A stretch of DNA of 64,000 nt from contig JAUHWN010000002.1 of the NCBI GenBank assembly GCA_030424665.1, forward strand, positions 7,731-71,730. The letters are read 5' to 3'. Shown here piece by piece: positions 28,867-64,000 of the stretch. The stretch comes from Bdellovibrionia bacterium. Lineage in GTDB: Bacteria; Bdellovibrionota; Bdellovibrionia; Bdellovibrionales; JAGQZY01. The notes under the pieces are model-generated. The model was not told the DNA's origin. It made no database searches and was given only the letters and a program-made list of their open reading frames with translations. Position 1 is the first letter of the stretch. Every line of letters begins with the position of its first letter. The translations under genes and the position numbers were made by a program.

Positions 28867-29706
28867 TTATTCACTAAAAAAGTCGCTAAGTGCCCGAATA
28901 AAGGCCTCCGATTGCTCAGAGTGAATCCAGTGGCCTGCCTCTTTAATTACTTGCCCCTTGGCCTTCTGATTCCTATTGAGCATTTCTTCGAAGATCTCAG
29001 GGCTGAGTTCCAATGACCTCTCGCCTCTGAGGAGTAGAATGGGCAAATCGAGTGATTCCCACTCCTTCCAACGATCTTGGGCTCGTCCCGCCTCGAGACT
29101 ATCAAAAATCCCCTTTTTCGAAAAACGCCAGTCCATTTTGCCATTATCCAAACTCTTGAGGTTGGCAAAAAGATATTGAGCCAAAGCTTGGGGATTTTGC
29201 CGATCGGCAAACTTCTTCGGAAATTCCATTTCAAAGAACTCCTTAGCCTGATCTCGGCTGGCAAAAGGAGCTGGAACGCCATTGATTAGACTTCGAATTC
29301 GATCAATATTTGAGCGATCAGCCTCGGGACCAATATCTTCGACCACTAACTTTTTTACGCGCCGCATATTATCAGAGGTAAATTGGATGGCATTTCTTCC
29401 TCCCAATGAGTGGCCGACGAGGGTAATTTCCGGCCAATTCAGCTCATCTAGTATTTTTTCAAGGTCTGCAGCGAAATCTTCTGGACGATATCCGGAATTT
29501 GGCTGAAAAGATCGGCCATGACCCCTTTGATCATAGACCAAAATCTGATATTCCTGTTCGAAGGCTTTGGTGATTTTTCGCCAGTTCGAAGAGAAGCCCA
29601 TGAGTCCGTGTAAGAATACGAGTTTAGGAAGCTCCGAGGAGCCGTAAAGTTGATAGTGGAAATTTTCTAAGTATGACATCTCAACTCCAAGAGGAATCTC
29701 AAACAA
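28867..29706 (-). CDS. alpha/beta-fold hydrolase
   Basis: Oxyanion region LVFLHGLMG, nucleophile elbow GHSLGG, and the C-terminal His context EAGHWIH. The start may be the ATG at 29679 (MSYLENF). Confidence 0.8.
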   Translation of the reverse strand: MFEIPLGVEMSYLENFHYQLYGSSELPKLVFLHGLMGFSSNWRKITKAFEQEYQILVYDQRGHGRSFQPNSGYRPEDFAADLEKILDELNWPEITLVGHSLGGRNAIQFTSDNMRRVKKLVVEDIGPEADRSNIDRIRSLINGVPAPFASRDQAKEFFEMEFPKKFADRQNPQALAQYLFANLKSLDNGKMDWRFSKKGIFDSLEAGRAQDRWKEWESLDLPILLLRGERSLELSPEIFEEMLNRNQKAKGQVIKEAGHWIHSEQSEAFIRALSDFFSE

Positions 29707-30977
29707 ATAGTAAAGCTACTTCATCTCCTAGCACGAGCCCCGTGAATAAGCCATCTCTTCATAAAGCATGGATTGATCCGCACGCCTTAGGTATCGTTAA
29801 GGCTTTGCAAAAAGGCGGTTACACCACTTATCTCGTTGGTGGATGTGTTCGCGATTTACTCATTGGTATTACGCCAAAAGATTTCGACATCGCTACATCA
29901 GCCCCACCACAAAAAGTAAGAAAGCAGGTTTACCAGTCTTATATTATCGGTAAACGGTTTCGTCTTGTTTTAGTTAAGCGAGATGATCACCAATACGAAG
30001 TTGCGACCTTTCGCAAACAGCCGCCCCAAGAAGACATCCCGGATGTGGGTCCGATTTTAGAAGACAATCTCTTTGGAAGTCCCAAAGAAGATGCGACTCG
30101 AAGAGATTTTACCATTAACGGTTTGTTTTACGACCCCGTTAAAGAGGATCTTATCGATTACAATGAAGGTCTTCGCGACATTCAGTTGAGAATGATTCGA
30201 ATGATCGGCGACCCCTACCAGCGCCTCGAAGAAGACCCAATTCGAATTTTGCGAGCCCTACGCTTAGCCCATAAAATTCAGTTTAGCATTGAGCCCGAAC
30301 TCAGAGAGGCCATGCAGTCCCAGGCAGAAACTTTGAAGTTTTCTGTCTTACCTCGAAAGCGCGAAGAGCTTTTGAAAATTCTAAGACTCGCGCATCCAGA
30401 GCTCGCCTTTGCCGAAGCCTTCGACTTAGACGTACTCCGGTATGTAATACCAAGCCTTCACGACGTATTGATGCAAGAAGGTGTCGCTGAGGCCTTTTTT
30501 AATAACCTCAAACACTACCTAAAGTTTAGAGATGATTTGAGTGACAACATTCAAATTTTTGGACTCTTCCTTTATGCCATATTCAGAACTCTCAATGGCG
30601 AAATTCCTGAAAAATTTCCGTCTAGCAATCACTTCCTAGAGGATGATTTCTATTCGCAAATCATGCGCGACGAACTGGGAATGTTTAAATACGAGCAGCA
30701 ATCTGTTGCACGCGCTATTCAATTGCTGAATGTCCTCGATCGATTGGACTCTTTTAATCAACGAACTCCCAGTCGACAACTGGCACTCCTCAAAAATGAA
30801 GGGTTTTGTTTGGCTTTGCAGTTTGCTGAGGCTGATTGCCTGATTCACCCGAGAAAACTCAATACCTGGCACAATCTCTACAATGAGAATATCGACCAGA
30901 TTTCCTCAATCGAGGATGAAAAGGCTAAACGCCGCAAGAAAAAACGCAAAAAGAAATACCAAAGATCTTCCAAATAA
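29673..30977 (+). CDS. pcnB: poly(A) polymerase I (class II nucleotidyltransferase)
   Basis: GGCVRDLLIG..PKDFDIAT and RRDFTINGLFYD. The published bacterial PAP signature [LIV][LIV]G[RK][RK]Fx[LIV]h[HQL][LIV] is satisfied by IIGKRFRLVLV. No HD motif is present. The tail is basic (KRRKKKRKKKYQRSSK). The start is uncertain and could be the GTG at 29742. Confidence 0.8.
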   Translation: MTSQLQEESQTNSKATSSPSTSPVNKPSLHKAWIDPHALGIVKALQKGGYTTYLVGGCVRDLLIGITPKDFDIATSAPPQKVRKQVYQSYIIGKRFRLVLVKRDDHQYEVATFRKQPPQEDIPDVGPILEDNLFGSPKEDATRRDFTINGLFYDPVKEDLIDYNEGLRDIQLRMIRMIGDPYQRLEEDPIRILRALRLAHKIQFSIEPELREAMQSQAETLKFSVLPRKREELLKILRLAHPELAFAEAFDLDVLRYVIPSLHDVLMQEGVAEAFFNNLKHYLKFRDDLSDNIQIFGLFLYAIFRTLNGEIPEKFPSSNHFLEDDFYSQIMRDELGMFKYEQQSVARAIQLLNVLDRLDSFNQRTPSRQLALLKNEGFCLALQFAEADCLIHPRKLNTWHNLYNENIDQISSIEDEKAKRRKKKRKKKYQRSSK

Positions 30978-31098
30978 CGGTCTTCGTCAGGCGCGCATAA
31001 AAAGAGTCATTCTAAATACCTTTTTGGTCCCTAATTTCGCTCTCAGAGGGCTTGAGCTTTGCATTTCTAGTGGACCTATTAAAAAGGCTTGGGTCAAA

Positions 31099-34000
31099 TT
31101 GAAGTGGATTAAATACTTACTACAAATATTAATAATTACACTTGGTTTAATTTTTTCAACCATTGGACTCACTCATGCCCAAGGAGAACCTACAGATGCT
31201 GAACTTTGGTGGGACTCTAAAACGATCCATCACTTTTTAGTGAAACCGAGCCCCAATGCTAGCGGACTTTTTGATTTTTTTGATATGTTAGAAAATGATC
31301 CAAAAGCCGAAACCGTTCTCAAAGAACAGCTTTTGAAAAAATACCCAAGTCTCCTTAGATACTATCAACAAGGTCTGAACTTTAAAGCGGAATACCAAGA
31401 ACTTGTTCGCAATAGAATTCAAGACGATCATCATGGCTATCATCTTTTCTTTACCAATTATGCCATTCAAAGGGTGCTGGAGTTATCGGAAACCATCGCT
31501 ATTGATCGAACTGAAGCTCCCCTCGATTTTAGGGAACGAGAACGACGAGCTCTTGGCCATGTCTCTCAGAGATATGGACTCGCATCAGGAATTACCACCG
31601 CTGACCTTCGAAGAGGAATTCTAGAGAACTCCGGAGATCTTTCTCAACATTACGAAAATGCACTCCTTACCTACGATCGACTTATGTTTTTTTATGAAGG
31701 TGAAAAGGAGAGAAAAAAAAGGATCGCTCCTCTGAGTGTTGATGAAATTCTAGATACTCTTAGTAGCGAAATTATGGAGGCTCGACTCAATAACCTGCGA
31801 GCCACCGTTGAGTTGGCTCGAGAAAAACGAGCAGCTAGAAATATCCACCTCAAGACATTGGATGGAAATTTAATACCAGTCCACGAAATAGGAACTGTCA
31901 CCCAAATCCAAGAGACGAGTTCAGGAACTGAAACTCACACTGTTTTTTCTAAAGGAGTGTCATATAGTACAGACTTTCAAAGAAGGTCATGGTGGGGATT
32001 TTTATTCGGAGGATGGACCAATTTTTCAGTACCAAATGTTCGAGAAAACTCATGGGTCCGTGACTTCCTGCTACCAGAACGATTTAAAGCTAGAAACAAT
32101 AAAAATTCAGTTCTTATTGAAACTGAGACTGATCGCTACGTCATATCTAGGTCTGACTATGAGAAGTTACTTAACGAATTGCGACTAAAAGGGTCTGACA
32201 ATCCGCAGGCTGGAAGAAAAAAACTAATCAAACGATTTCAAATCGAAGCTTCTGCAAGAGAAGCTCTTTTAGCAGACCTTTTTACTTTTGTTGTTCAAAC
32301 GCGATTTCCAGATACCAATACGCTCCTGACTCAACTGGAACAATATCAGAGTAAACTGACTAGGGAACAAAGAGCGACTGGCCTATCACTAAGTCTCATA
32401 TCTTCGATTGAGGGAAAAGAATCCTATTCATCACTCGGCTTTCTCAATGGATTGCGATGGTGGGGATATTCTTTTCATCCTGGCAACTGGCTCAGGCGAG
32501 AAATCCTAGCACAAGATCAACTCCTTCCGAGTATTTTTAAACTCAAAAACGGTATGGCTTTCAAAAAACTAGATAAACATCAAAAGAAAGCCTTGAAAGA
32601 AGAAAAGGATCAAGTGAAAAAGTGGCGCGCGACCAGAGGGCTCCGAAGGTGGCGAGTATATAGATGGATTGTCGGTGTCAGTTTACTTCTCGCTCCTTTA
32701 AGCCCCGGCTTAATTGATGTTTCGAATGTCTGGCAAAATGAAGAGCCCGCCCCTAGTCTGAATCAAAACCCAATGCATATGGAAGAGAGCTCATCTGAGC
32801 ATTATATAGGCTCGGAAGAACAAAAACAATTACAAGGGAAGGTAGAATTATTTAAGGTAAGAGACTTTAATTTTGTAAATTGGAACAGAACTATTCATAT
32901 TGCAACTGAAAGTAATCTCCCTCGGTCAGCCATCGAAAATATGGATCCCACAAACGAAGGAGACGATGTTGTTTTAATTGCGCCAGAGCCTTTGCAAACC
33001 ACACCCGAGGACGTATTTTCAATCGAAACCATTCAGTATGTTGTTCCTCTAAATGGTAGAGTTGGAATTGCAACTCCTTCTGGCTTTGAAGTCTCAAGAA
33101 TTCGAGTGAACGAGGTCGCAAAACTAGAAAATGAGAGTTGGCTGAACACTCCATTAACAATAAACGAAGACTACAAAGTCTATAGAATTCCGACAAATGG
33201 ACTTTATTACCTTGAATTGGCTAATCCCAATGTGGAAGGAATTAAATATACAGTCAGCTTTGAGAAAACAGACGCTCCTGCTGTAAAAATCGACTTCGAA
33301 TTTGACCCAGAAACACTTCGTATACTTTCTCTTGAAAACTATAAATTGGGAGCGGAAAAAGTGGCGACAGAGATTTATAGATATTCTCAAGGGGGATATC
33401 GTAGTCTCAGCTTAACTCAGCTTGAAGGAATCTATTCAAGTCACTCAATTTATACTTTTGATTACCAATCTGATGGTGAAAGTCAGATCGAACCAAGTGA
33501 TCTGTTTCAGGGACTAGAGCAGTATTCTAAAGATGGTTATCTTTGGTACCAGTGCACTGGTGCGGCCGCACACTTGGCTGAAAGTTTTGAATATGCTTTT
33601 AAAAGACAAAGTGCTCCGTACCAAGCCCAACAAGTTAGTGGGTATAATTATGGAGAGCGATACGTATCAAGTGGTTTTATCGTCTCAGGTGACATGGCTC
33701 ACAGTCAGGTTCTCGTAAGTGACAAAAGAAATGACTTTCAATATGAAATTTTTGATTCTACCCCCTACGAAAGAACTCCCCCTGAGCCCGAGCCAATCGA
33801 ACTACCTCGAGCCTATGAGCAACTCTTTACTCGTCCCGAGCAACCACGCGAAATTAAAGAGTCCGAGTCACTGGCTCAAGCTCGAATTAATCGAGCCCTT
33901 CATTTGTTTGATGAAGTAACAATTATATCTCAGGAGCTGAATGAACTCGCAGAAAAATTAGGTCCAGAGAATCCTATCTTTAATAATCCTAGAGAATTGC

Positions 34001-34461
34001 GAGCCTTACCACAAACGAAACTTATGGCAATCTCTAGAGTTCTCCAAGAGGCTAAAAAAGAAGATATCACGTTTAGAAAAGCGATTTTTAAGATCTATCT
34101 TATTTCTCAAGGACAATTTGAATCCTATAATTTCGAGTCAGACCAAGAGTGGGTGGCGGCTTATAATGAACAAGTTGAGATTGACGGCGGCTACCAAAAT
34201 TTAATTCAGAATATATTGACGGGAATTAATGATAGTATGGGACAACTCTACTCTGGACTCGATAAAAACGTAGACAACGAGAGCATTCAACAAATTCAAT
34301 ATTTAAATTCAAGTCCTTGGCGGACACGTCATCGAAATCTAATTCAAATCCTATTGGCTGTCGATTTAAACGCAGTCTTCGATGGAGAATTGGTATCCAT
34401 GGAATATTCGCGTCTAACTAACAATCGTTGCGAGAATCTCTTTATCGAGTCATATCTATAA
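31099..34461 (+). CDS. large (~1120 aa) membrane-associated protein with a C-terminal transglutaminase-like Cys-protease core
   Basis: The frame is open from 30883. I propose the TTG start at 31099 (LKWIKYLLQILIITLGLIFSTIGLTHA, a signal or TM segment), which avoids the overlap with pcnB. A second TM lies near WIVGVSLLLAPLSPGL. The candidate triad is Cys at 33553 (WYQCTGAAAHLA), His at 33700 (MAHSQVLV), and Asp at 33754 (IFDSTP). Spacing is typical of the transglutaminase-like superfamily. Confidence 0.6.
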   Translation: MKWIKYLLQILIITLGLIFSTIGLTHAQGEPTDAELWWDSKTIHHFLVKPSPNASGLFDFFDMLENDPKAETVLKEQLLKKYPSLLRYYQQGLNFKAEYQELVRNRIQDDHHGYHLFFTNYAIQRVLELSETIAIDRTEAPLDFRERERRALGHVSQRYGLASGITTADLRRGILENSGDLSQHYENALLTYDRLMFFYEGEKERKKRIAPLSVDEILDTLSSEIMEARLNNLRATVELAREKRAARNIHLKTLDGNLIPVHEIGTVTQIQETSSGTETHTVFSKGVSYSTDFQRRSWWGFLFGGWTNFSVPNVRENSWVRDFLLPERFKARNNKNSVLIETETDRYVISRSDYEKLLNELRLKGSDNPQAGRKKLIKRFQIEASAREALLADLFTFVVQTRFPDTNTLLTQLEQYQSKLTREQRATGLSLSLISSIEGKESYSSLGFLNGLRWWGYSFHPGNWLRREILAQDQLLPSIFKLKNGMAFKKLDKHQKKALKEEKDQVKKWRATRGLRRWRVYRWIVGVSLLLAPLSPGLIDVSNVWQNEEPAPSLNQNPMHMEESSSEHYIGSEEQKQLQGKVELFKVRDFNFVNWNRTIHIATESNLPRSAIENMDPTNEGDDVVLIAPEPLQTTPEDVFSIETIQYVVPLNGRVGIATPSGFEVSRIRVNEVAKLENESWLNTPLTINEDYKVYRIPTNGLYYLELANPNVEGIKYTVSFEKTDAPAVKIDFEFDPETLRILSLENYKLGAEKVATEIYRYSQGGYRSLSLTQLEGIYSSHSIYTFDYQSDGESQIEPSDLFQGLEQYSKDGYLWYQCTGAAAHLAESFEYAFKRQSAPYQAQQVSGYNYGERYVSSGFIVSGDMAHSQVLVSDKRNDFQYEIFDSTPYERTPPEPEPIELPRAYEQLFTRPEQPREIKESESLAQARINRALHLFDEVTIISQELNELAEKLGPENPIFNNPRELRALPQTKLMAISRVLQEAKKEDITFRKAIFKIYLISQGQFESYNFESDQEWVAAYNEQVEIDGGYQNLIQNILTGINDSMGQLYSGLDKNVDNESIQQIQYLNSSPWRTRHRNLIQILLAVDLNAVFDGELVSMEYSRLTNNRCENLFIESYL

Positions 34462-57717: not shown

Positions 57718-59499
57718 TTAGAGGCTTCCTGATCTTTCAGCCGTTTCTGCTTCGACAGCCTCAAGACCTCTTTCAACATCCTCAAATAAGCCATCTTCTT
57801 CACCACCGACACCATTAGCATTCTCTTCAACTGAAAAGTTGAAGTCACTAACATCGGCAGTCACACCAACTTGAGCGATCTGGTGAATTGCATCATCGAC
57901 ACCGGCTTGCCTAGCATCAAAATCAGACATGCGCTCAGCAATGACGTCATCGTTCCGAGCTAATTCAGTAAGACGTCTTTGGTGGCTAGCGATTTGCTCT
58001 TCCACTCTCTCAATGGCATCAGATCTGTCAAATACCATGGTACGAACTCGCATGTTCGTTTCGTGGTTAAACTGCGCCACATCTTCAGTCATTCTATGGG
58101 CGAGACCGGACATATGATCAGAAGTCTCTGCCAATTCGCGAGCGATACTTCCACCAAGGGCTCTTGCCGTACTTGCAGCAACTTGAAATTCAATGGCTTC
58201 AAGATCCTCTTGAGCTGCCATAGAAAGAGATACATACATTTCGTAATCTTGTTTCATACCTTCTCTGCGCAATTTCTCTTGTTGAATATGGAGTCTTCGG
58301 CTCTGGAGTCTACGGTTGAGGAGCTCAAGAGCTTGCCCATATTGACCTGCAACTTCAAGAAGTCTTGGGTCTTGCTCGCCCTGGGGCTGAGCTGCTAATG
58401 CCGCATCAACTTTAGTTTTGGCTTCATTAACTTGGTGAATAGCAAATCGAATGGCATTTACATCGTCATTGAGTTGATGCTCAAGAATAATACTTCTTCG
58501 ATATTCTTCCTTTGATCGATCCGCAGCCTCGTCAACCTTATCAATCATTTCACCAATTTTTACTGTAATATTTTTTACGAAATCGAGAAGTGAACCGCGC
58601 TTAACTTTTAATTTATTAAAGATCTCTTCTTTAACTTCTTCAGAAGTATTTGGATCGTTGTACATAGCTTCAGCTTCGTCATCAGTCAACTCTACTTCTT
58701 GTGTACGTCTAAACATTCCTGTACCGGGGATCGTGACTCTGATTTTGCTGGCAGAATCCATGATATTTGATAGAGCATCTTGGCCACCTTGTATAAGGGA
58801 TGAAAGACCATTTCTAGCTGCCTGAACACGAGTTGGATTTAACTGAGCATTAATTGCTTCTTGCATTGCTTCTTGATTAGAAGTGTCGATATCGTTTTCT
58901 AGGACAATACTGATTTCAGCAAAGGCTCGCTTAATTGCCTTGGCATTAGCTAAATCGGCCTCTCGTGCTTCATTCAAAGTTCCTGAATTAAAACTATGGG
59001 CCTGAGAATTTCTTAAAGTATCTTTACCAATCTTAGCAATTGTACTGAGATCAGCGACATTGAAACCCTCTAGTTTTTTTCTTAAATCAGCAATTTCTTG
59101 CTCACGAGATCTTCTTAATTCCTGATCAATTTGTAAGAAAAGAGAAGAGCTATAACGTGCTTCCATACCAGCAGCGAGCTCTGAAGTATCTGTGTCATCG
59201 CCAAAATTAATATTTGTTTCCCACATTCCACCGTCTTCACCGGCTAAGCCCGCCATAAGGTCATCATTACCACTAGCATCTGCGATCAAAGCATCGAGAG
59301 CTGAACCAGGTGCAGTCGGTGCTTCTGCCGCCGGTGCTTCTGCAGTCATTTCTGCAATTACAGAATTTCTAATACCAGAAACACTTTCTTCACAAGAAAG
59401 GGTATCTGCGTGGGCAGCATGACTTGCTACCATACTGATACTTGCAACTGCGATTTTTAGAGCAAGCAAGCCTCGTAAATTTCGTCGAGTAAGTTTCAT
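57718..59499 (-). CDS. secreted coiled-coil protein (593 aa), function unknown
   Basis: Signal peptide MKLTRRNLRGLLALKIAVASISMVASHAAHA, the Ala/Pro/Glu linker AEAPAAEAPTAPGS, then long Glu/Arg/Gln/Ala-rich heptad-like sequence and an acidic C-terminus. RBS AGGAG lies upstream. Confidence 0.6.
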   Translation of the reverse strand: MKLTRRNLRGLLALKIAVASISMVASHAAHADTLSCEESVSGIRNSVIAEMTAEAPAAEAPTAPGSALDALIADASGNDDLMAGLAGEDGGMWETNINFGDDTDTSELAAGMEARYSSSLFLQIDQELRRSREQEIADLRKKLEGFNVADLSTIAKIGKDTLRNSQAHSFNSGTLNEAREADLANAKAIKRAFAEISIVLENDIDTSNQEAMQEAINAQLNPTRVQAARNGLSSLIQGGQDALSNIMDSASKIRVTIPGTGMFRRTQEVELTDDEAEAMYNDPNTSEEVKEEIFNKLKVKRGSLLDFVKNITVKIGEMIDKVDEAADRSKEEYRRSIILEHQLNDDVNAIRFAIHQVNEAKTKVDAALAAQPQGEQDPRLLEVAGQYGQALELLNRRLQSRRLHIQQEKLRREGMKQDYEMYVSLSMAAQEDLEAIEFQVAASTARALGGSIARELAETSDHMSGLAHRMTEDVAQFNHETNMRVRTMVFDRSDAIERVEEQIASHQRRLTELARNDDVIAERMSDFDARQAGVDDAIHQIAQVGVTADVSDFNFSVEENANGVGGEEDGLFEDVERGLEAVEAETAERSGSL

Positions 59500-59820: not shown

Positions 59821-62800
59821 ATGATTGCGAACTTTCTATTTAATAAACAGATTAGGATCTTTGATGTGAAACTCCTCGCTCGGAGATTTGTCTATATATA
59901 TGTCATAGCGATGCTCAGTTTTTCGCAAACTGCAATAGCCCAAGAAGACGGTGATAGTCTTTCTGACCTACTCGGTAACTTAGGGATCAATACCGAAACC
60001 TTTGGTGGCGATTCAGCTGCTGAGCCGGCGCCTTCGGATGATGAAGCTGAAACTGAGCCCGTCGAAATAGAGGCCACCCCAGAAACAAGTGAGGAAGAAC
60101 CTGCTCCGAGTCCTTCGGTATCAACTCAGGCTGGTCCTCAAGAGACCGAACTGATCACAGAACTTTCTCCAGAAGTTGAGGCTATCGAAGCTCCCGTGAT
60201 TCCACCGGCAGCTCAACAAGTTGTTCGCCAACAAGGAACGAGTACGGTTAATGGAATCACTCTTCCCCAACGCGCTCCAGAGTTTAGAGATTTTTCTTCG
60301 GCACCCTGGAGAATCGCTAATCTACCAATTCTTATTAAAATCGAGAAGGTCAATCAACAATTAGAAACAGCCCGCGCCAATGGCCAAGCCAGCGAGCAAG
60401 TGGAAGAACAGGGAAAAAGAACCCTTGATAAGCTAAAAGAGCAACTCAAGGGTGTTCTTATCGAAACATTTTTTGATGATCTCACTGAACAGGTCTACTT
60501 TGAGCAATTCACTGATCGTCCATTATATCGTGATGAGTATATTGGTTCTGTCGCTACGACTCTCAGTTCAAGACAAAACCCTTACTTCCTCGTTCATGGT
60601 GACGCTGGACAGGGAAAGACTTTAATCCCCTACGAAATTGCAAACCGAATTATAGAAGGAAATATTCCGTCTCGTCTTAGAGGAAGACGGGTTATTAGGC
60701 TCGATCTCGAAGAGTTATCTCGTGACAATCACAAATTGCCTAAACACCTGCAAAAGGGTGATGTAAATAACAGACTTATAGCTCTAACAGATGAACTCGA
60801 AGAATACCAAAACGACGTAATCATTGCTGTGGATATTAGTAACCCAGCTCTACAGAGAACCCATCTTGATAAGGTTCTCACACAAATATCTAAAAATAGA
60901 AATATACCTATTCTTTTGATAGGACAAGAAACTGACAATATTTTCGTCAAAGACGGAGTTCAACTGACTCTTGAAAGTCGCGAACAACCCCACCTCAGTA
61001 AAGATGAAGTCGTCGATATAATATTTAGACGAGTGGCCCCACTTGAGGAGGAGTATGGAATTAGTGTCAACAGAGAGGCCATTCGCGATCTTGTTAATGT
61101 CATGGAATTGAGAATTGGGGCTGAAAACTTTCCCGGTCAAGCGATCGAGATTGTTGAAAGAGCTATTCACCGTCGCTACGAAAACAGAATTAGCGGTAAA
61201 TCGGAACGCGTTCAATTCTTAGAAAGAGAAATCGCAAAGCTTCACCTAGAACTCGCTGGGCTCGACAACGAACAAGGCCCACTCGCCGATCGTGAGAGAG
61301 ATAAAATCGACGCAAAAATCTCACAAATTCGCGAAGAAATGGCCGCCGTCGAAAAATGGCTCGAAGGCTATGAAGAAGCCTTTGATTTCTTACAGCAAAA
61401 TGACGACTATATTTCAAATGCACAAAACGCTCGATCTCAGGCCCTACGAACTCGAACCCAATTAGAAATTCGCTTGGCACCTTACTGGACGCAACTGCGA
61501 TTGGGTCTCCACATGAGAATTTCTCAATTTAACGATGCAAAAGGCCTTGAATTTATTGAAAAGCTTTTTGAAAAGTCCTACGAATTAGGCATGGGTGATT
61601 CGGGGTCTCAACCTATCGAAAATGCCGAAACTAATGTTACATTACTCATGCAAGAATATCTATCAAATGAGACCTATCCCGCTGATGTTCTCGATACTAT
61701 TTATCAGCAGATTATGGGAATGCTCAATGCGATTTTTACTGAAGCCTTCAAGGGCGGATACAATGTTTCCTACCTCGGTTTGACACAAACTATTCAAGAG
61801 GCTGACTCTAAAATTGCCGAGGCTCGTGGACATTCACAAGATGTCTTCGGCCAACTTCAAGAGGCTCTAGGGGAGAACTGGCCCGAGGACATGGGTCCTA
61901 CTCTTGGGCGACAGGAGTTGATTGAAACACTAGCTCGCGCGACCAATAAAAGCTACGAGAGTCTTATTTCAGTTTTCGAAACTCCAGAAGATCGACTCAG
62001 AAGAATTGAAGAGGCCATTAGCGAAAGGTATGTTGGTCAGCCCCACTTTGTTTCGGCAATCATGGAAATGGAGAGAAATGGTAGGATGTCAGATAAAGGC
62101 CCCGTCTATTCAGCCTTTTTCCTCGGTGGCTCAACTAAGGGTAAGTCAGAACTTCCTAAAATCATTGGTAATACCCTAGATCCCGACTGTTTCTTTGACT
62201 TTCCCATTGGTCAAGCTACCTCCGAAGCCGATATCAATACTTACTTAGGTTCCCCCGATGGTTACACTGGTGGAGAGGGTGAACTCTATGAAGCTCTAGA
62301 GAAGTGCAGTGAAGGTGTGATTAACTTCGACGAGATCGATAAAGTTGATCCAGCGATACTTCAATCATTCTTTTACCCGCTTTTAAGAGAAGGAATTACG
62401 CGAAACAAAAGAGGAAAAAGACTCGACTTTAGAAACTTCAGAATTTTTATGTCGGCCAATTCACTCGAGCAACTCCTACAAATGTTTCCAGATCTCGCAG
62501 AAAGTGCTACGGCAATGTTTAACAGTGACTCGGATCCAGATAGCCTTGAAGGTCGAGAACGATACCGCGCTCTTATGTTTAGAGCCCTTCACTCTGAAAA
62601 TAGTCAGGAACAAACTGATTCATTAAGGCAAATGTTAGAAGAACTCGACAGTGGACAATACGCCCAGGCCTTTTTACGTCGTCTTAACTATATAGGATAT
62701 GCTAACAACTTTAACGATCAGGACTACAAAGACTTAGTACGTGCTATTTTTGTTCACGATCTTGGGAAAGCCTTGCGTGAATATCTAAGAGTTGACGTTC

Positions 62801-63120
62801 GACTATCTGATTCAGCGATTGAACATCTTGCAAAATTAAGTATCAACCGCACTAGAGATGCCGCCAATGTCGCTTCAGTATTAAGAAATTCTGTAGTTGG
62901 ACCCATCAGGAATCTACTTTCTCAAGGAAGTATTACGAGAAATGACATTATTGATTTCGACTTCGAGAATGGTGAATTCAAGCTCTTTAAATTAGATAAA
63001 GATTTAAATCGTATCGAAAGTGAATCTTTTGGGTCACTTGAAGCGAGAATTCCTCGTTATGAAAGTGCTGCATACGTGCCCATGACTTGTGAAGACATCA
63101 TTGGAGCACTTGCTCAATAA
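59821..63120 (+). CDS. ClpB/Hsp100-like double-AAA+ ATPase with N-terminal signal peptide/anchor and acidic linker
   Basis: D1: FLVHGDAGQGKTLIPYEIANRIIEGNIPSRLRGRRVIRLDLEEL closely parallels ClpB D1, and the Walker B reads IIAVDISN. A middle coiled coil follows (LEREIAKLHLELAGLDNE...). D2: FFLGGSTKGKSELPK, VINFDEIDKVDP, and FRIFMSANS. The N-terminus is KLLARRFVYIYVIAMLSFSQTAIAQED, followed by a ~100-aa Pro/Glu/Ala-rich segment. Confidence 0.8.
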   Translation: MIANFLFNKQIRIFDVKLLARRFVYIYVIAMLSFSQTAIAQEDGDSLSDLLGNLGINTETFGGDSAAEPAPSDDEAETEPVEIEATPETSEEEPAPSPSVSTQAGPQETELITELSPEVEAIEAPVIPPAAQQVVRQQGTSTVNGITLPQRAPEFRDFSSAPWRIANLPILIKIEKVNQQLETARANGQASEQVEEQGKRTLDKLKEQLKGVLIETFFDDLTEQVYFEQFTDRPLYRDEYIGSVATTLSSRQNPYFLVHGDAGQGKTLIPYEIANRIIEGNIPSRLRGRRVIRLDLEELSRDNHKLPKHLQKGDVNNRLIALTDELEEYQNDVIIAVDISNPALQRTHLDKVLTQISKNRNIPILLIGQETDNIFVKDGVQLTLESREQPHLSKDEVVDIIFRRVAPLEEEYGISVNREAIRDLVNVMELRIGAENFPGQAIEIVERAIHRRYENRISGKSERVQFLEREIAKLHLELAGLDNEQGPLADRERDKIDAKISQIREEMAAVEKWLEGYEEAFDFLQQNDDYISNAQNARSQALRTRTQLEIRLAPYWTQLRLGLHMRISQFNDAKGLEFIEKLFEKSYELGMGDSGSQPIENAETNVTLLMQEYLSNETYPADVLDTIYQQIMGMLNAIFTEAFKGGYNVSYLGLTQTIQEADSKIAEARGHSQDVFGQLQEALGENWPEDMGPTLGRQELIETLARATNKSYESLISVFETPEDRLRRIEEAISERYVGQPHFVSAIMEMERNGRMSDKGPVYSAFFLGGSTKGKSELPKIIGNTLDPDCFFDFPIGQATSEADINTYLGSPDGYTGGEGELYEALEKCSEGVINFDEIDKVDPAILQSFFYPLLREGITRNKRGKRLDFRNFRIFMSANSLEQLLQMFPDLAESATAMFNSDSDPDSLEGRERYRALMFRALHSENSQEQTDSLRQMLEELDSGQYAQAFLRRLNYIGYANNFNDQDYKDLVRAIFVHDLGKALREYLRVDVRLSDSAIEHLAKLSINRTRDAANVASVLRNSVVGPIRNLLSQGSITRNDIIDFDFENGEFKLFKLDKDLNRIESESFGSLEARIPRYESAAYVPMTCEDIIGALAQ

Positions 63121-63131
63121 GGTATGAATTT

Positions 63132-64000
63132 GTGAAACAAAGTATATTGTTACCATTTATTTTTACTATGTGCATCTCACCCCTGGTGTTTGCGGAAGAC
63201 GCAAGCTTGAGGGGACTTTTAGTGGGTCGTTGTGAGGCTGGCCTAGATCCTGCTCATCAGATGGCAGCCAAAATATTGCGAGACATGAGCCCCTTTGTTT
63301 CAAGCTTCAGAGTTGAGTCCTTAGAATTCCAAAGAGATAGTAGTCGAGATATCATCAGTGTCTACACCTTGACGAATGGTGGAATGACTCGCAGAGCCTT
63401 AGATCTCGACCTAGAAGGAATTCGTAAACTATCAATGAGCATCAAAGATGCCAAAGACAAAGCGATGGAGGCTATCGGGGAACTGTCTTTAGAACGACAA
63501 TTTCGCAGAATGACCGAAGGGGAATCGACTCGCGATCAAATTCGTGCACGATGGAACCGAATTCGCGGAGCCGAAGGGGAAAAGGCTCCGATGATGGAAA
63601 TCCACGCTCAACTGGTTACCCTCGGCGAAGCCATTAAAAGAATCAACGAGGACCTATCAAAATCTTACACATTAATAGATTCGTCCATGCGCATACTCAC
63701 CGAAACCATGAGTGATGTCGATAGACAAATAGCTAAAATCGACCAAGGTTTAAGAATATACAATATTATATTCTTGCAAGTTGGTCGAATGATCCTAAGA
63801 GAAGTACCCGATTTGAATATCGACCGGAAAAAATTGAGAGATCTAAGACCAAAAGATGGTGTTAACTACATCTTAGAAGTACTTCAATCCTACGAAGATT
63901 CACCTTGGAGTAAGCAAAGAATCGGTAGACTCAAGGAGATCATCGAATGGTATCAAAGGGGGTATTCCTCGACACTCAACCTAAAAGCGGGCCATCTAGA
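63132..64000 (+). CDS. secreted coiled-coil-like protein, partial (runs off the window)
   Basis: Not in the supplied ORF track. I translated the frame from the GTG at 63132 to 64000 by hand and found no stop codon. The N-terminus VKQSILLPFIFTMCISPLVFAED is signal-peptide-like. Charged helical sequence follows (EAIGELSLERQFRRMTEGE...DRQIAKIDQGLRIY). It begins 11 nt after the AAA+ stop. Confidence 0.5.
   Translation, partial: MKQSILLPFIFTMCISPLVFAEDASLRGLLVGRCEAGLDPAHQMAAKILRDMSPFVSSFRVESLEFQRDSSRDIISVYTLTNGGMTRRALDLDLEGIRKLSMSIKDAKDKAMEAIGELSLERQFRRMTEGESTRDQIRARWNRIRGAEGEKAPMMEIHAQLVTLGEAIKRINEDLSKSYTLIDSSMRILTETMSDVDRQIAKIDQGLRIYNIIFLQVGRMILREVPDLNIDRKKLRDLRPKDGVNYILEVLQSYEDSPWSKQRIGRLKEIIEWYQRGYSSTLNLKAGHL

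Follow-up and report, generated by a model that had tools for sequence, protein, structure and literature searches.

The ATPase gene and its two rings

The subject of this analysis is a gene in a 64,000-nucleotide stretch of DNA of a Bdellovibrionia bacterium (GenBank assembly GCA_030424665.1, contig JAUHWN010000002.1, positions 7,731 to 71,730 of the forward strand), referred to below as the window. Positions 59821..63120 of the plus strand form one open reading frame (ORF) of 1099 amino acids (aa), which encodes an Hsp100 protein with two AAA+ rings, D1 and D2. An earlier, sequence-only reading of this ORF described it as a ClpB homologue in which an export signal and an acidic linker replace the N-terminal domain and in which the Walker B motif of D1 is defective; the position of the ORF and all the features observed in that reading were borne out, the coordinates and the length being exact. 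As judged from its sequence, the ORF almost certainly encodes a lineage-restricted, functional derivative of ClpB-type Hsp100 proteins with a catalytically dead D1. Its best overall explanation, to which we assign a probability of roughly 0.4, would be an exported Hsp100 derivative driven by D2. The gene comprises the following segments:

59821..59940, plus strand: putative signal peptide (aa 1-40), with a basic n-region (+4), an 18-aa h/c-region (FVYIYVIAMLSFSQTAIA) and a predicted cleavage site between AIA and QE
59941..60240, plus strand: acidic linker (aa 41-140), disordered by its composition and by the AlphaFold2 (AF2) confidence measure pLDDT (predicted local distance difference test) of <50
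60241..60465, plus strand: family-specific pre-D1 module (aa 141-215; TVNGITLPQRAPEFRDFSSAPWR...), a beta-hairpin and helices
60466..61185, plus strand: D1 AAA+ domain (aa 216-455), from phmmer and MAFFT alignments
61186..61908, plus strand: enlarged coiled-coil middle domain (M-domain, aa 456-696), with AF2 helices at residues 462-686 (~225 aa), about twice the size of the ClpB M-domain
61909..62700, plus strand: D2 AAA+ domain (aa 697-960; Pfam AAA_2, 5e-12), including after sensor 1 an insert of low AF2 confidence (aa 888-947)
62701..63120, plus strand: D2-small subdomain, C-terminal beta extension and tail (aa 961-1099 and the stop codon), from AF2 and alignment

The likeness of both rings to those of ClpB was confirmed by a phmmer search of the PDB, in which T. 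thermophilus ClpB (1qvr) was the best match (E=2e-30), with D1 (aa 210-517) and D2 (aa 717-881) aligning as separate blocks. The Pfam AAA_2 match covers aa 762-883 of D2 and is accompanied by weak matches to AAA, AAA_lid_9 and ClpB_D2-small. The AF2 model, built from a 30-sequence alignment, has a mean pLDDT of 68.5, with values mostly of 70-90 in the ATPase domains; used as a Foldseek query, it matched ClpB 4ciu with E=1.4e-26, and ClpB, ClpC, Hsp104 and the HSP101 protein of Plasmodium PTEX were all found within 1e-26 to 1e-20.

The assignment to a particular Hsp100 family is less straightforward. Among NCBIfam models ClpV1 (TIGR03345, 130 bits) was marginally above ClpB (TIGR03346, 126.3 bits), both scores being about one tenth of the equivalog cut-offs; the cut-off of TIGR03346 is 1232.1 bits, and NF008118 gave 89.6 bits against a cut-off of 1417. 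The window protein resembles ClpB/Hsp104 (1qvr, 4ciu) in the order of its two AAA+ rings, in the coiled-coil middle domain that interrupts the D1 small subdomain, in an AAA_2-type D2 with a GYxG pore loop and in lacking the ClpP-docking IGF/IGL loop. Its identity to these proteins is, however, only about 22%, and the place of the Clp_N domain is taken by a signal peptide and an acidic linker. Further differences from ClpB/Hsp104 include the lack of the Walker B Glu, the pore-loop Tyr and one Arg finger in D1, the lack of the sensor-2 Arg in D2, an M-domain of about double size, 60 aa inserted behind sensor 1 and an extended C-terminus that holds a conserved Cys; moreover, DnaK would be unavailable to the window protein if it is exported. 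The absence of the usual Clp N-domain, reported in the sequence-only reading, was confirmed with PF02861, which remained undetected even at E<=0.1, while nearly all canonical matches carry it. By these sequence-based measures the protein falls outside ClpB on score, N-domain, D1 catalysis, D1 pore loop and predicted location. ClpV/TssH, another two-ring Hsp100 uncoupled from a protease, can be ruled out as well: its TIGR03345 cut-off is 884.95 bits, and no genes of a type VI secretion system (T6SS) cluster lie within +/-10 kb of the window gene. Unlike the window protein, ClpV has a VipB-binding N-domain and an active D1, and is cytoplasmic. A ClpP-coupled unfoldase was also rejected, as aa 880-955 contain no IGF, IGL or LGF tripeptide, while canonical ClpC-type matches show GF at this position.

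The motifs of both rings were compared in a MAFFT alignment of 26 canonical Hsp100s and the family, i.e., the window protein and its relatives of 95% (P0001, locus L003), 63% (P0002, locus L001) and 34% (P0063) identity:

60598-60621, plus strand: D1 Walker A, GDAGQGKT (canonical GEPGVGKT), kept
within 60745-60759, plus strand: D1 pore-loop position, Q311 after a 6-aa insertion (canonical Tyr), lost; Arg in P0063
60817-60843, plus strand: D1 Walker B remnant, VIIAVDISN (canonical hhhhDE), lost; the Glu and about 20 residues after it are missing
in D1, plus strand: Arg fingers, ESR (canonical ERR), degraded; KQQ in P0063
62125-62148, plus strand: D2 Walker A, GGSTKGKS (canonical GPTGVGKT), kept
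62248-62274, plus strand: D2 pore loop, GSPDGYTGG, with GYTG (canonical GYVG) kept
62317-62337, plus strand: D2 Walker B, VINFDEI, reading FDEIDK (canonical LDEIEK), kept
62452-62460, plus strand: D2 sensor 1, SAN (canonical TSN), kept
62677-62682, plus strand: D2 Arg finger, RR of FLRRL (canonical FLNR), kept
62854-62874, plus strand: D2 sensor 2 replaced by RDAANVA (canonical GARP), Arg lost

The loss of the catalytic Glu from the D1 Walker B motif, the central claim of the sequence-only reading, withstood realignment. The phmmer alignment pairs VILFIDELH of ClpB with VIIAVDISN, MAFFT places D338 on the Walker B Asp, and no shift of register in the phmmer alignment or in two MAFFT alignments restores a DE pair to D1. 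The nearby TDELEE was rejected as the D1 Walker B motif, as it sits in the preceding helix. The defect is family-wide (DI in P0001 and P0002, DV in P0063) and is joined by two losses that had escaped the sequence-only reading, those of the pore-loop Tyr and of one Arg finger. Walker A is the only feature of a competent D1 that is present, the pattern being the same throughout the family, and the D1 P-loop is retained in all members. By its motifs, D1 is catalytically dead, unable to hydrolyse ATP or to thread a substrate; at most it can still take up nucleotide and help to keep the ring assembled, or act as a platform for docking.

In D2, in addition to the GKS, FDEID and SAN motifs reported before, the Arg finger and the GYTG pore loop are present, which makes five of six features of a competent ring; the sixth, the sensor-2 Arg, has given way to RDAAN throughout the family. 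Walker A and B, sensor 1, the Arg finger and the pore-loop Tyr are also conserved in P0063, which is 42% identical over D2. If either ring is a motor, it could only be D2, and the window protein would then work like an Hsp100 with a single active ring. In type II AAA+ proteins with one degenerate ring, such as NSF (D2) and PEX1 (D1), the degenerate ring keeps its P-loop and binds nucleotide without being able to hydrolyse it, and has a role in oligomerisation, while the other ring is the motor. These are cytoplasmic proteins of other AAA+ clades, whereas in Hsp100s both rings are normally active. The residues around the D2 pore-loop Tyr read GSPDGYTGG in the window protein and GSPNGYKDG in the 95% relative; either the constraint on these flanks is relaxed or they are diversifying.

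Relatives, rarity and selection

A word-indexed search of 5.8 billion proteins returned only P0001 and P0002 as relatives of the window protein, the rest being ordinary ClpB, ClpC and ClpE proteins of about 25% identity. Three matches below 1e-30 were obtained in an exhaustive HMMER search of 1.84 billion representatives, namely P0002, its tail fragment P0064 and a new member, P0063. A genome scan found only the Bdellovibrionia metagenome-assembled genome (MAG) of the 95% relative (JAUICP010000001), and two metagenome scans yielded zero additional members. One further candidate, L011, turned out to be an ordinary ClpB/C with an N-domain. Among the proteins searched the family is extremely rare and consists of three lineages: the window protein with its 95% relative, the 63% relative and the 34% relative.

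The most distant member, P0063, has 1009 aa and is 34% identical to the window protein overall, 29% in D1. Its D1 has a P-loop (GASGRGKS), a Walker B motif without Glu (LVLDVTD) and no pore-loop Tyr, while its D2 motifs are intact and its sensor-2 region shows the same RDAANVA. Since P0063 likewise combines a signal peptide with a D1 that is dead and a D2 that looks live, these traits are ancestral to the family.

The ORF is intact, at 1099 aa, in the genomes of both the window and the 95% relative, and comparison of the two gives a dS of 0.43 and a dN/dS of 0.054. By segment, dN/dS is 0 in the pre-D1 module (aa 141-215), 0.005 in D1, 0.039 in the M-domain, 0.052 in the D2 core and 0.33 in the linker. 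The whole protein is under strong purifying selection and the gene is real; with this dN/dS, and with the same features recurring in the 95%, 63% and 34% relatives, the features are not a product of chance. D1 is the most constrained domain despite its predicted catalytic death. The pre-D1 module, which had no match in a Pfam search, differs between the 95% relatives by 15 synonymous and 0 nonsynonymous substitutions; it is kept in P0002, and its SPPW and FFTDLT motifs are recognisable in P0063. The middle domain lies between the D1 small subdomain and D2 and aligns with the ClpB M-domain, with large insertions.

These figures bear on whether the locus could be a decaying gene or an annotation artefact without function. 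The extreme rarity of the family and a frame-shifting deletion in the 63% relative would fit such an explanation, but the intact ORF in two genomes with the dS and dN/dS given above, together with a third intact member of 34% identity showing the same motif pattern, effectively refutes it, and we consider its probability negligible.

N-terminus, cysteines and neighbouring genes

The N-terminus agrees with its earlier description: residues 1-22 have a net charge of +4, the uncharged stretch of 18 residues (aa 23-40) ends at the predicted cleavage site, and the Pro/Glu/Ala/Ser-rich segment of about 100 aa (aa 41-140) consists of 18% E, 12% P, 11% A and 9% S, with a net charge of -23. In the AF2 model aa 39-139 are disordered. 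The linker evolves fast, with 18 synonymous and 22 nonsynonymous differences from the 95% relative; little of it is conserved in P0002.

All signal-peptide calls in this analysis were made with a crude N-terminal rule rather than a trained predictor, and this rule cannot tell signal peptides from transmembrane (TM) anchors; it was negative on the cytoplasmic AlaRS, DEAD-box helicase and transketolase. Among large ORFs of the window, 20 of 48 have a start like that of a signal peptide or an anchor, a high fraction that fits the large secretomes reported for Bdellovibrio-like organisms. An equivalent hydrophobic, cleavable-looking N-terminus occurs in P0001, P0002 and P0063; in the last of these it reads MKMLLLIFIFIGSTSMA, with predicted cleavage before SS, and is followed by a low-complexity linker. 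Small residues occupy positions -3 and -1 in all three lineages (AIA before Q, TLA before Q and SMA before S). The region of aa 23-40 is the sole hydrophobic 19-aa window of the protein, and the charge bias indicates an N-in/C-out orientation in every family member, with +4 before the helix of the window protein and QEDGD and the -23 linker after it.

The signal is not of the Tat type, because the RR pair is not conserved: LARRFVY becomes IAQSLVY in the 95% relative, and the pair is absent from P0002 and P0063. Nor is the ATPase a lipoprotein, since it has no early Cys, with no lipobox and zero Cys within the first 789 residues. Export through Sec is, on these grounds, probable.

An export signal could be bypassed by internal translation initiation, which had been considered in the sequence-only reading as one way out of the paradox of an ATPase placed where ATP is not available. 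E. coli clpB uses an internal GTG start, and by analogy with its product ClpB80 a shorter cytoplasmic isoform could be functional, alone or beside an exported long form. The only in-frame downstream candidates are GTG126 and GTG194. The former lies in a locally conserved PVI patch, with GAGG 14-18 nt upstream, but neither the Shine-Dalgarno (SD) element nor the codon is conserved in orthologs: the SD-like element before GTG126 is missing in the 95% relative, the 63% relative has no start codon at the equivalents of GTG126 and GTG194, and P0063 has no equivalent. Moreover, the first 40 residues appear to be translated, because they are conserved at the protein level across the 63% and 34% relatives. 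An internal start is, in our view, very improbable.

The ATPase contains exactly three Cys residues, C790 (62188-62190), C829 (62305-62307) and C1090 (63088-63090). All three are kept in P0063, and together with the D2 motifs they recur in both full-length relatives. In the canonical set of 26 Hsp100s, Cys never occurs in the columns of C790 and C829; the extension that bears C1090, at the C-terminus, is itself missing from most of that set. In the AF2 model C790 directly precedes beta2, and C829 is located three residues before beta3. Since beta2 and beta3 run parallel as neighbours in the AAA+ fold, a C790-C829 disulfide would be geometrically plausible. Single Cys residues are also found in the products of the two neighbouring genes:

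63132..64000, plus strand, cut by the window end: downstream gene, whose full product (P0212) is a 432-aa all-helical orphan with a signal peptide
57718..59499, minus strand: divergent gene of a 593-aa orphan with a signal peptide (MKLTRRNLRG...HAAHA, with predicted cleavage before DT), an acidic Ala/Pro-rich stretch and a helical body

The mature part of the downstream protein has the single C34, which is conserved at the locus of the 63% relative, and its positional analogue at locus L009 also has a single Cys; the upstream 593-aa protein has the single C36. Each of these Cys residues looks unpaired: C1090 in the C-terminal tail of the ATPase, C34 located 13 aa after the signal, and C36 located 5-8 aa after it. 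This pattern of C1090, C34 and C36 suggests possible intermolecular disulfides. Overall, the Cys distribution is typical of extracytoplasmic disulfide-bonded proteins and hints at an oxidising location.

The downstream gene starts 11 nt after the stop codon of the ATPase gene, with no terminator found in the gap, and the two genes are predicted to be co-transcribed. Its orthologs occupy the same position at the loci of the 63% and 95% relatives, and P0212 has only two homologues in 5.8 billion proteins, both of the same clade. The AF2 model of P0212 is all-alpha with a pLDDT of 56, and a Foldseek search with this low-confidence model gave nothing significant (best E 0.025); matches to alpha-pore-forming toxins (E 0.16-1.5) are regarded as noise. 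At L009 the downstream position is occupied by a 457-aa helical protein with a hydrophobic N-terminus. The only homologue of the divergent 593-aa protein, which has an AEAP-rich acidic stretch and a net charge of -42, is P0214, a 95% relative; by its adjacency, this protein probably belongs to the same system. It begins with MKLTRRNLRGLLALKIAVASISMVASHAAHA, a twin-arginine-like n-region that could represent a Tat signal. Neither flanking orphan has a match in Pfam, NCBIfam, PDB, PHROG or PADLOC.

The wider context comprises chromosomal housekeeping genes (RsmJ-type methyltransferase, Na/Pi transporter, UbiA, polyprenyl synthase and menaquinone genes). A defence system or phage origin was rejected in view of this context, of a GC content the same as that of the surroundings and of defence matches that are only of the generic AAA_2 type; in PADLOC, D2 alone matches candidate PDC-M37B models (66 bits).

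The data reviewed here favour the extracytoplasmic placement of the ATPase body that the sequence-only reading had derived from the positive-inside rule: the hydrophobic segment is the only one, its flanking charges point to N-in, a signal is predicted in three lineages, and both flanking genes start with predicted signal peptides. Of the escapes from the ATP paradox proposed there, the internal start is disfavoured, as described above, and an inverted topology contradicts the charge bias of all members. The paradox of an exported Hsp100 is therefore a real one.

A related way to remove the paradox would be a protein that is cytoplasmic and tethered to the membrane by an uncleaved helix, with the ATPase body on the cytoplasmic face (N-out/C-in or in-plane) and normal access to ATP. 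Cleavage is a prediction only, and membrane-tethered Hsp100s appear to exist, as the extra TM helices of P0146, a protein found in the same search, would return its ATPase to the cytoplasm. Such a tether is nonetheless unlikely: it would require a charge bias opposite to the one found, and the single hydrophobic segment, the canonical small -3/-1 residues of three lineages, the signal peptides of both neighbours and the three conserved Cys residues where canonical Hsp100s have none all speak for export.

Possible site and mode of action

All bacterial Hsp100s characterised so far are, to our knowledge, cytoplasmic, and the prevailing view is that protein quality control and transport proceed without ATP outside the bacterial cytoplasm. 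In a full-text literature search covering about 8.3 million papers no use of 'secreted', 'exported' or 'periplasmic AAA+' was found, nor did the literature yield an exported, secreted or periplasmic bacterial AAA+ or Hsp100 protein or a signal-bearing ClpB of Bdellovibrio.

We propose that the window protein may be exported through Sec together with the downstream helical orphan, and probably also with the divergent 593-aa protein, and that it would work outside the cytoplasm of its producer as an unfoldase or translocation motor driven by the single D2 ring. We infer that it would act where ATP is reachable, because selection preserves the catalytic residues of D2. For a member of a predatory phylum, such a site could be the invaded prey cell, i.e., the bdelloplast or the prey cytoplasm. 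Delivery into another cell, the remaining escape from the ATP paradox, is made more plausible by the origin of the source genome from Bdellovibrionia, and Lambert et al. 2010 (PMC2797640) ascribe to Sec an important role in the secretion of degradative enzymes into prey. An ATP-driven action in or on prey is a tentative possibility on this evidence.

Several observations weigh against an exported motor driven by D2. The activity of this ring is not assured, because the sensor-2 Arg, whose loss was not remarked upon in the sequence-only reading, is gone family-wide. Three of the seven D2-core substitutions between the 95% relatives hit the pore loop (PDGYTGG to PNGYKDG). At the locus of the 63% relative (L001:104-2736, JGI 3300036203, Ga0401697_1235), the tblastn matches fall in two different frames (aa 1-688 and aa 922-1097), and aa 689-921, i.e., the whole D2 nucleotide-binding core, are lost. 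This deletion shifts the frame, its junction falls on a 4-nt GCCC microhomology, and the C-terminal remainder forms a separate 161-aa ORF of 79.5% identity. A recent pseudogene, a split gene and a strain variant are all conceivable at this locus, and the deletion suggests that D2 may be dispensable or that the gene decays easily. As regards location, we know of no ATP source in the bacterial periplasm, the predatory lifestyle of the source MAG is assumed from its taxonomy alone, and the signal rule was positive for as many as 20 of 48 ORFs in the window. As regards partners, no translocon component was identified among the neighbours, and homology between the downstream proteins of the window clade and of L009 was undetected (E=0.14).

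The main rival explanation, which we regard as possible yet somewhat unlikely, is that of an exported pseudo-ATPase working independently of ATP, in which a hexamer scaffold built of the dead D1 and the M-domain serves as a periplasmic or surface holdase, adaptor or platform with the helical partners. The absence of ATP from the periplasm is established knowledge, and a scaffold would fit the strong constraint on a D1 that appears dead, the family-wide loss of the sensor-2 Arg and the variable pore-loop flanks. It would also fit the 63% relative, which lacks the D2 core yet has the signal peptide, D1, M-domain and C-terminal domain at 63-80% identity. On the other hand, the D2 Walker A Lys, Walker B Asp-Glu, sensor-1 Asn, Arg finger and pore-loop Tyr are all present in the 34% relative, the dN/dS of the D2 core is low (0.052) and all members retain the D1 P-loop, while such motifs normally drift after the use of nucleotide ends, as the D1 Walker B motif has done; the frame-shifting deletion in the 63% relative may, in turn, represent a recent pseudogene. 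With an export signal as old as the family and D2 motifs that have been maintained, either nucleotide would be reachable at the site of action or the protein would be an ATP-independent extracytoplasmic scaffold.

The closest functional analogue of an exported, D2-driven window protein could be HSP101 of Plasmodium (6e10, 6e11), a ClpB-type Hsp100 with a secretory signal, which in the window family is rule-predicted. HSP101 acts outside the cytoplasm of its producer, in a compartment that borders another cell (the parasitophorous vacuole), and powers the PTEX translocon. Both 6e10 and 6e11 were among the sequence matches, and 6e10 was also a structural match. HSP101 differs from the window protein in being eukaryotic and in retaining both an N-domain and two active rings; in sequence, bacterial ClpB is at least as close to the window protein, and counterparts of EXP2 and PTEX150 were undetected among the neighbours in sequence and fold searches. 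The resemblance is an analogy and not membership.

Extended to a complete machine, the analogy would combine a single-motor Hsp100 with helical partners, one of them forming or docking to a pore in the prey inner membrane; prey ATP would power the threading of predator effectors into the cytoplasm of the prey, or the extraction of prey proteins to be digested. This extension is speculative and rather improbable. If it were true, the window protein would be the first ATP-driven AAA+ unfoldase known outside the bacterial cytoplasm and would provide an answer to the question of how periplasmic predators move proteins across the inner membrane of their prey. If nucleotide is reachable inside prey, a new step of bacterial predation would be revealed. 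A natural Hsp100 in which the D1 that appears dead is also the most constrained domain bears, in addition, on the division of labour between the two rings.

Torsins offer another precedent. They are signal-bearing AAA+ proteins of the ER lumen, an oxidising compartment outside the cytoplasm, and are related to Clp/Hsp100 D2, with degenerate catalytic elements and functionally important conserved Cys residues (PMC4999309, PMC7175109). In contrast to the window protein, they are eukaryotic, consist of a single ring, obtain their Arg finger from LAP1/LULL1 and have no pore-loop aromatic residue, while the D2 of the window protein has its own Arg finger and a pore-loop Tyr. The comparison revealed no sequence relationship specific to Torsins and the window protein.

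Several unrelated signal-bearing proteins of Clp type were encountered in the same search. P0173 (L010:1130-3784; GCA_964424215.1, CAYRIE010000147.1) is an 884-aa Hsp100-like protein of similar layout, with a signal peptide, no Clp_N, an altered D1 Walker B motif (ILAVEDIG), a long middle domain and an intact D2, and its gene overlaps by 4 nt that of an upstream helical/TM protein. It was rejected as a distant member, being no nearer to the family than to ordinary ClpB. In P0065, P0076 and P0101 a signal-like start is followed by two or three tandem AAA_2 modules of D2 type, and in P0089 by two AAA_2 modules of this type, with a HEAGH (FtsH/M41-like) peptidase at the C-terminus. The canonical D1 and D2 of P0146 come after a signal peptide, an acidic linker and 2-3 TM helices. 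Exported or membrane-threaded Clp-like ATPases may thus be an overlooked class.

Elsewhere in the window, positions 30883-34461 of the plus strand contain an ORF of 1192 aa without a Pfam match at E<=0.001, which overlaps part of the preceding 434-aa ORF (29673-30977).

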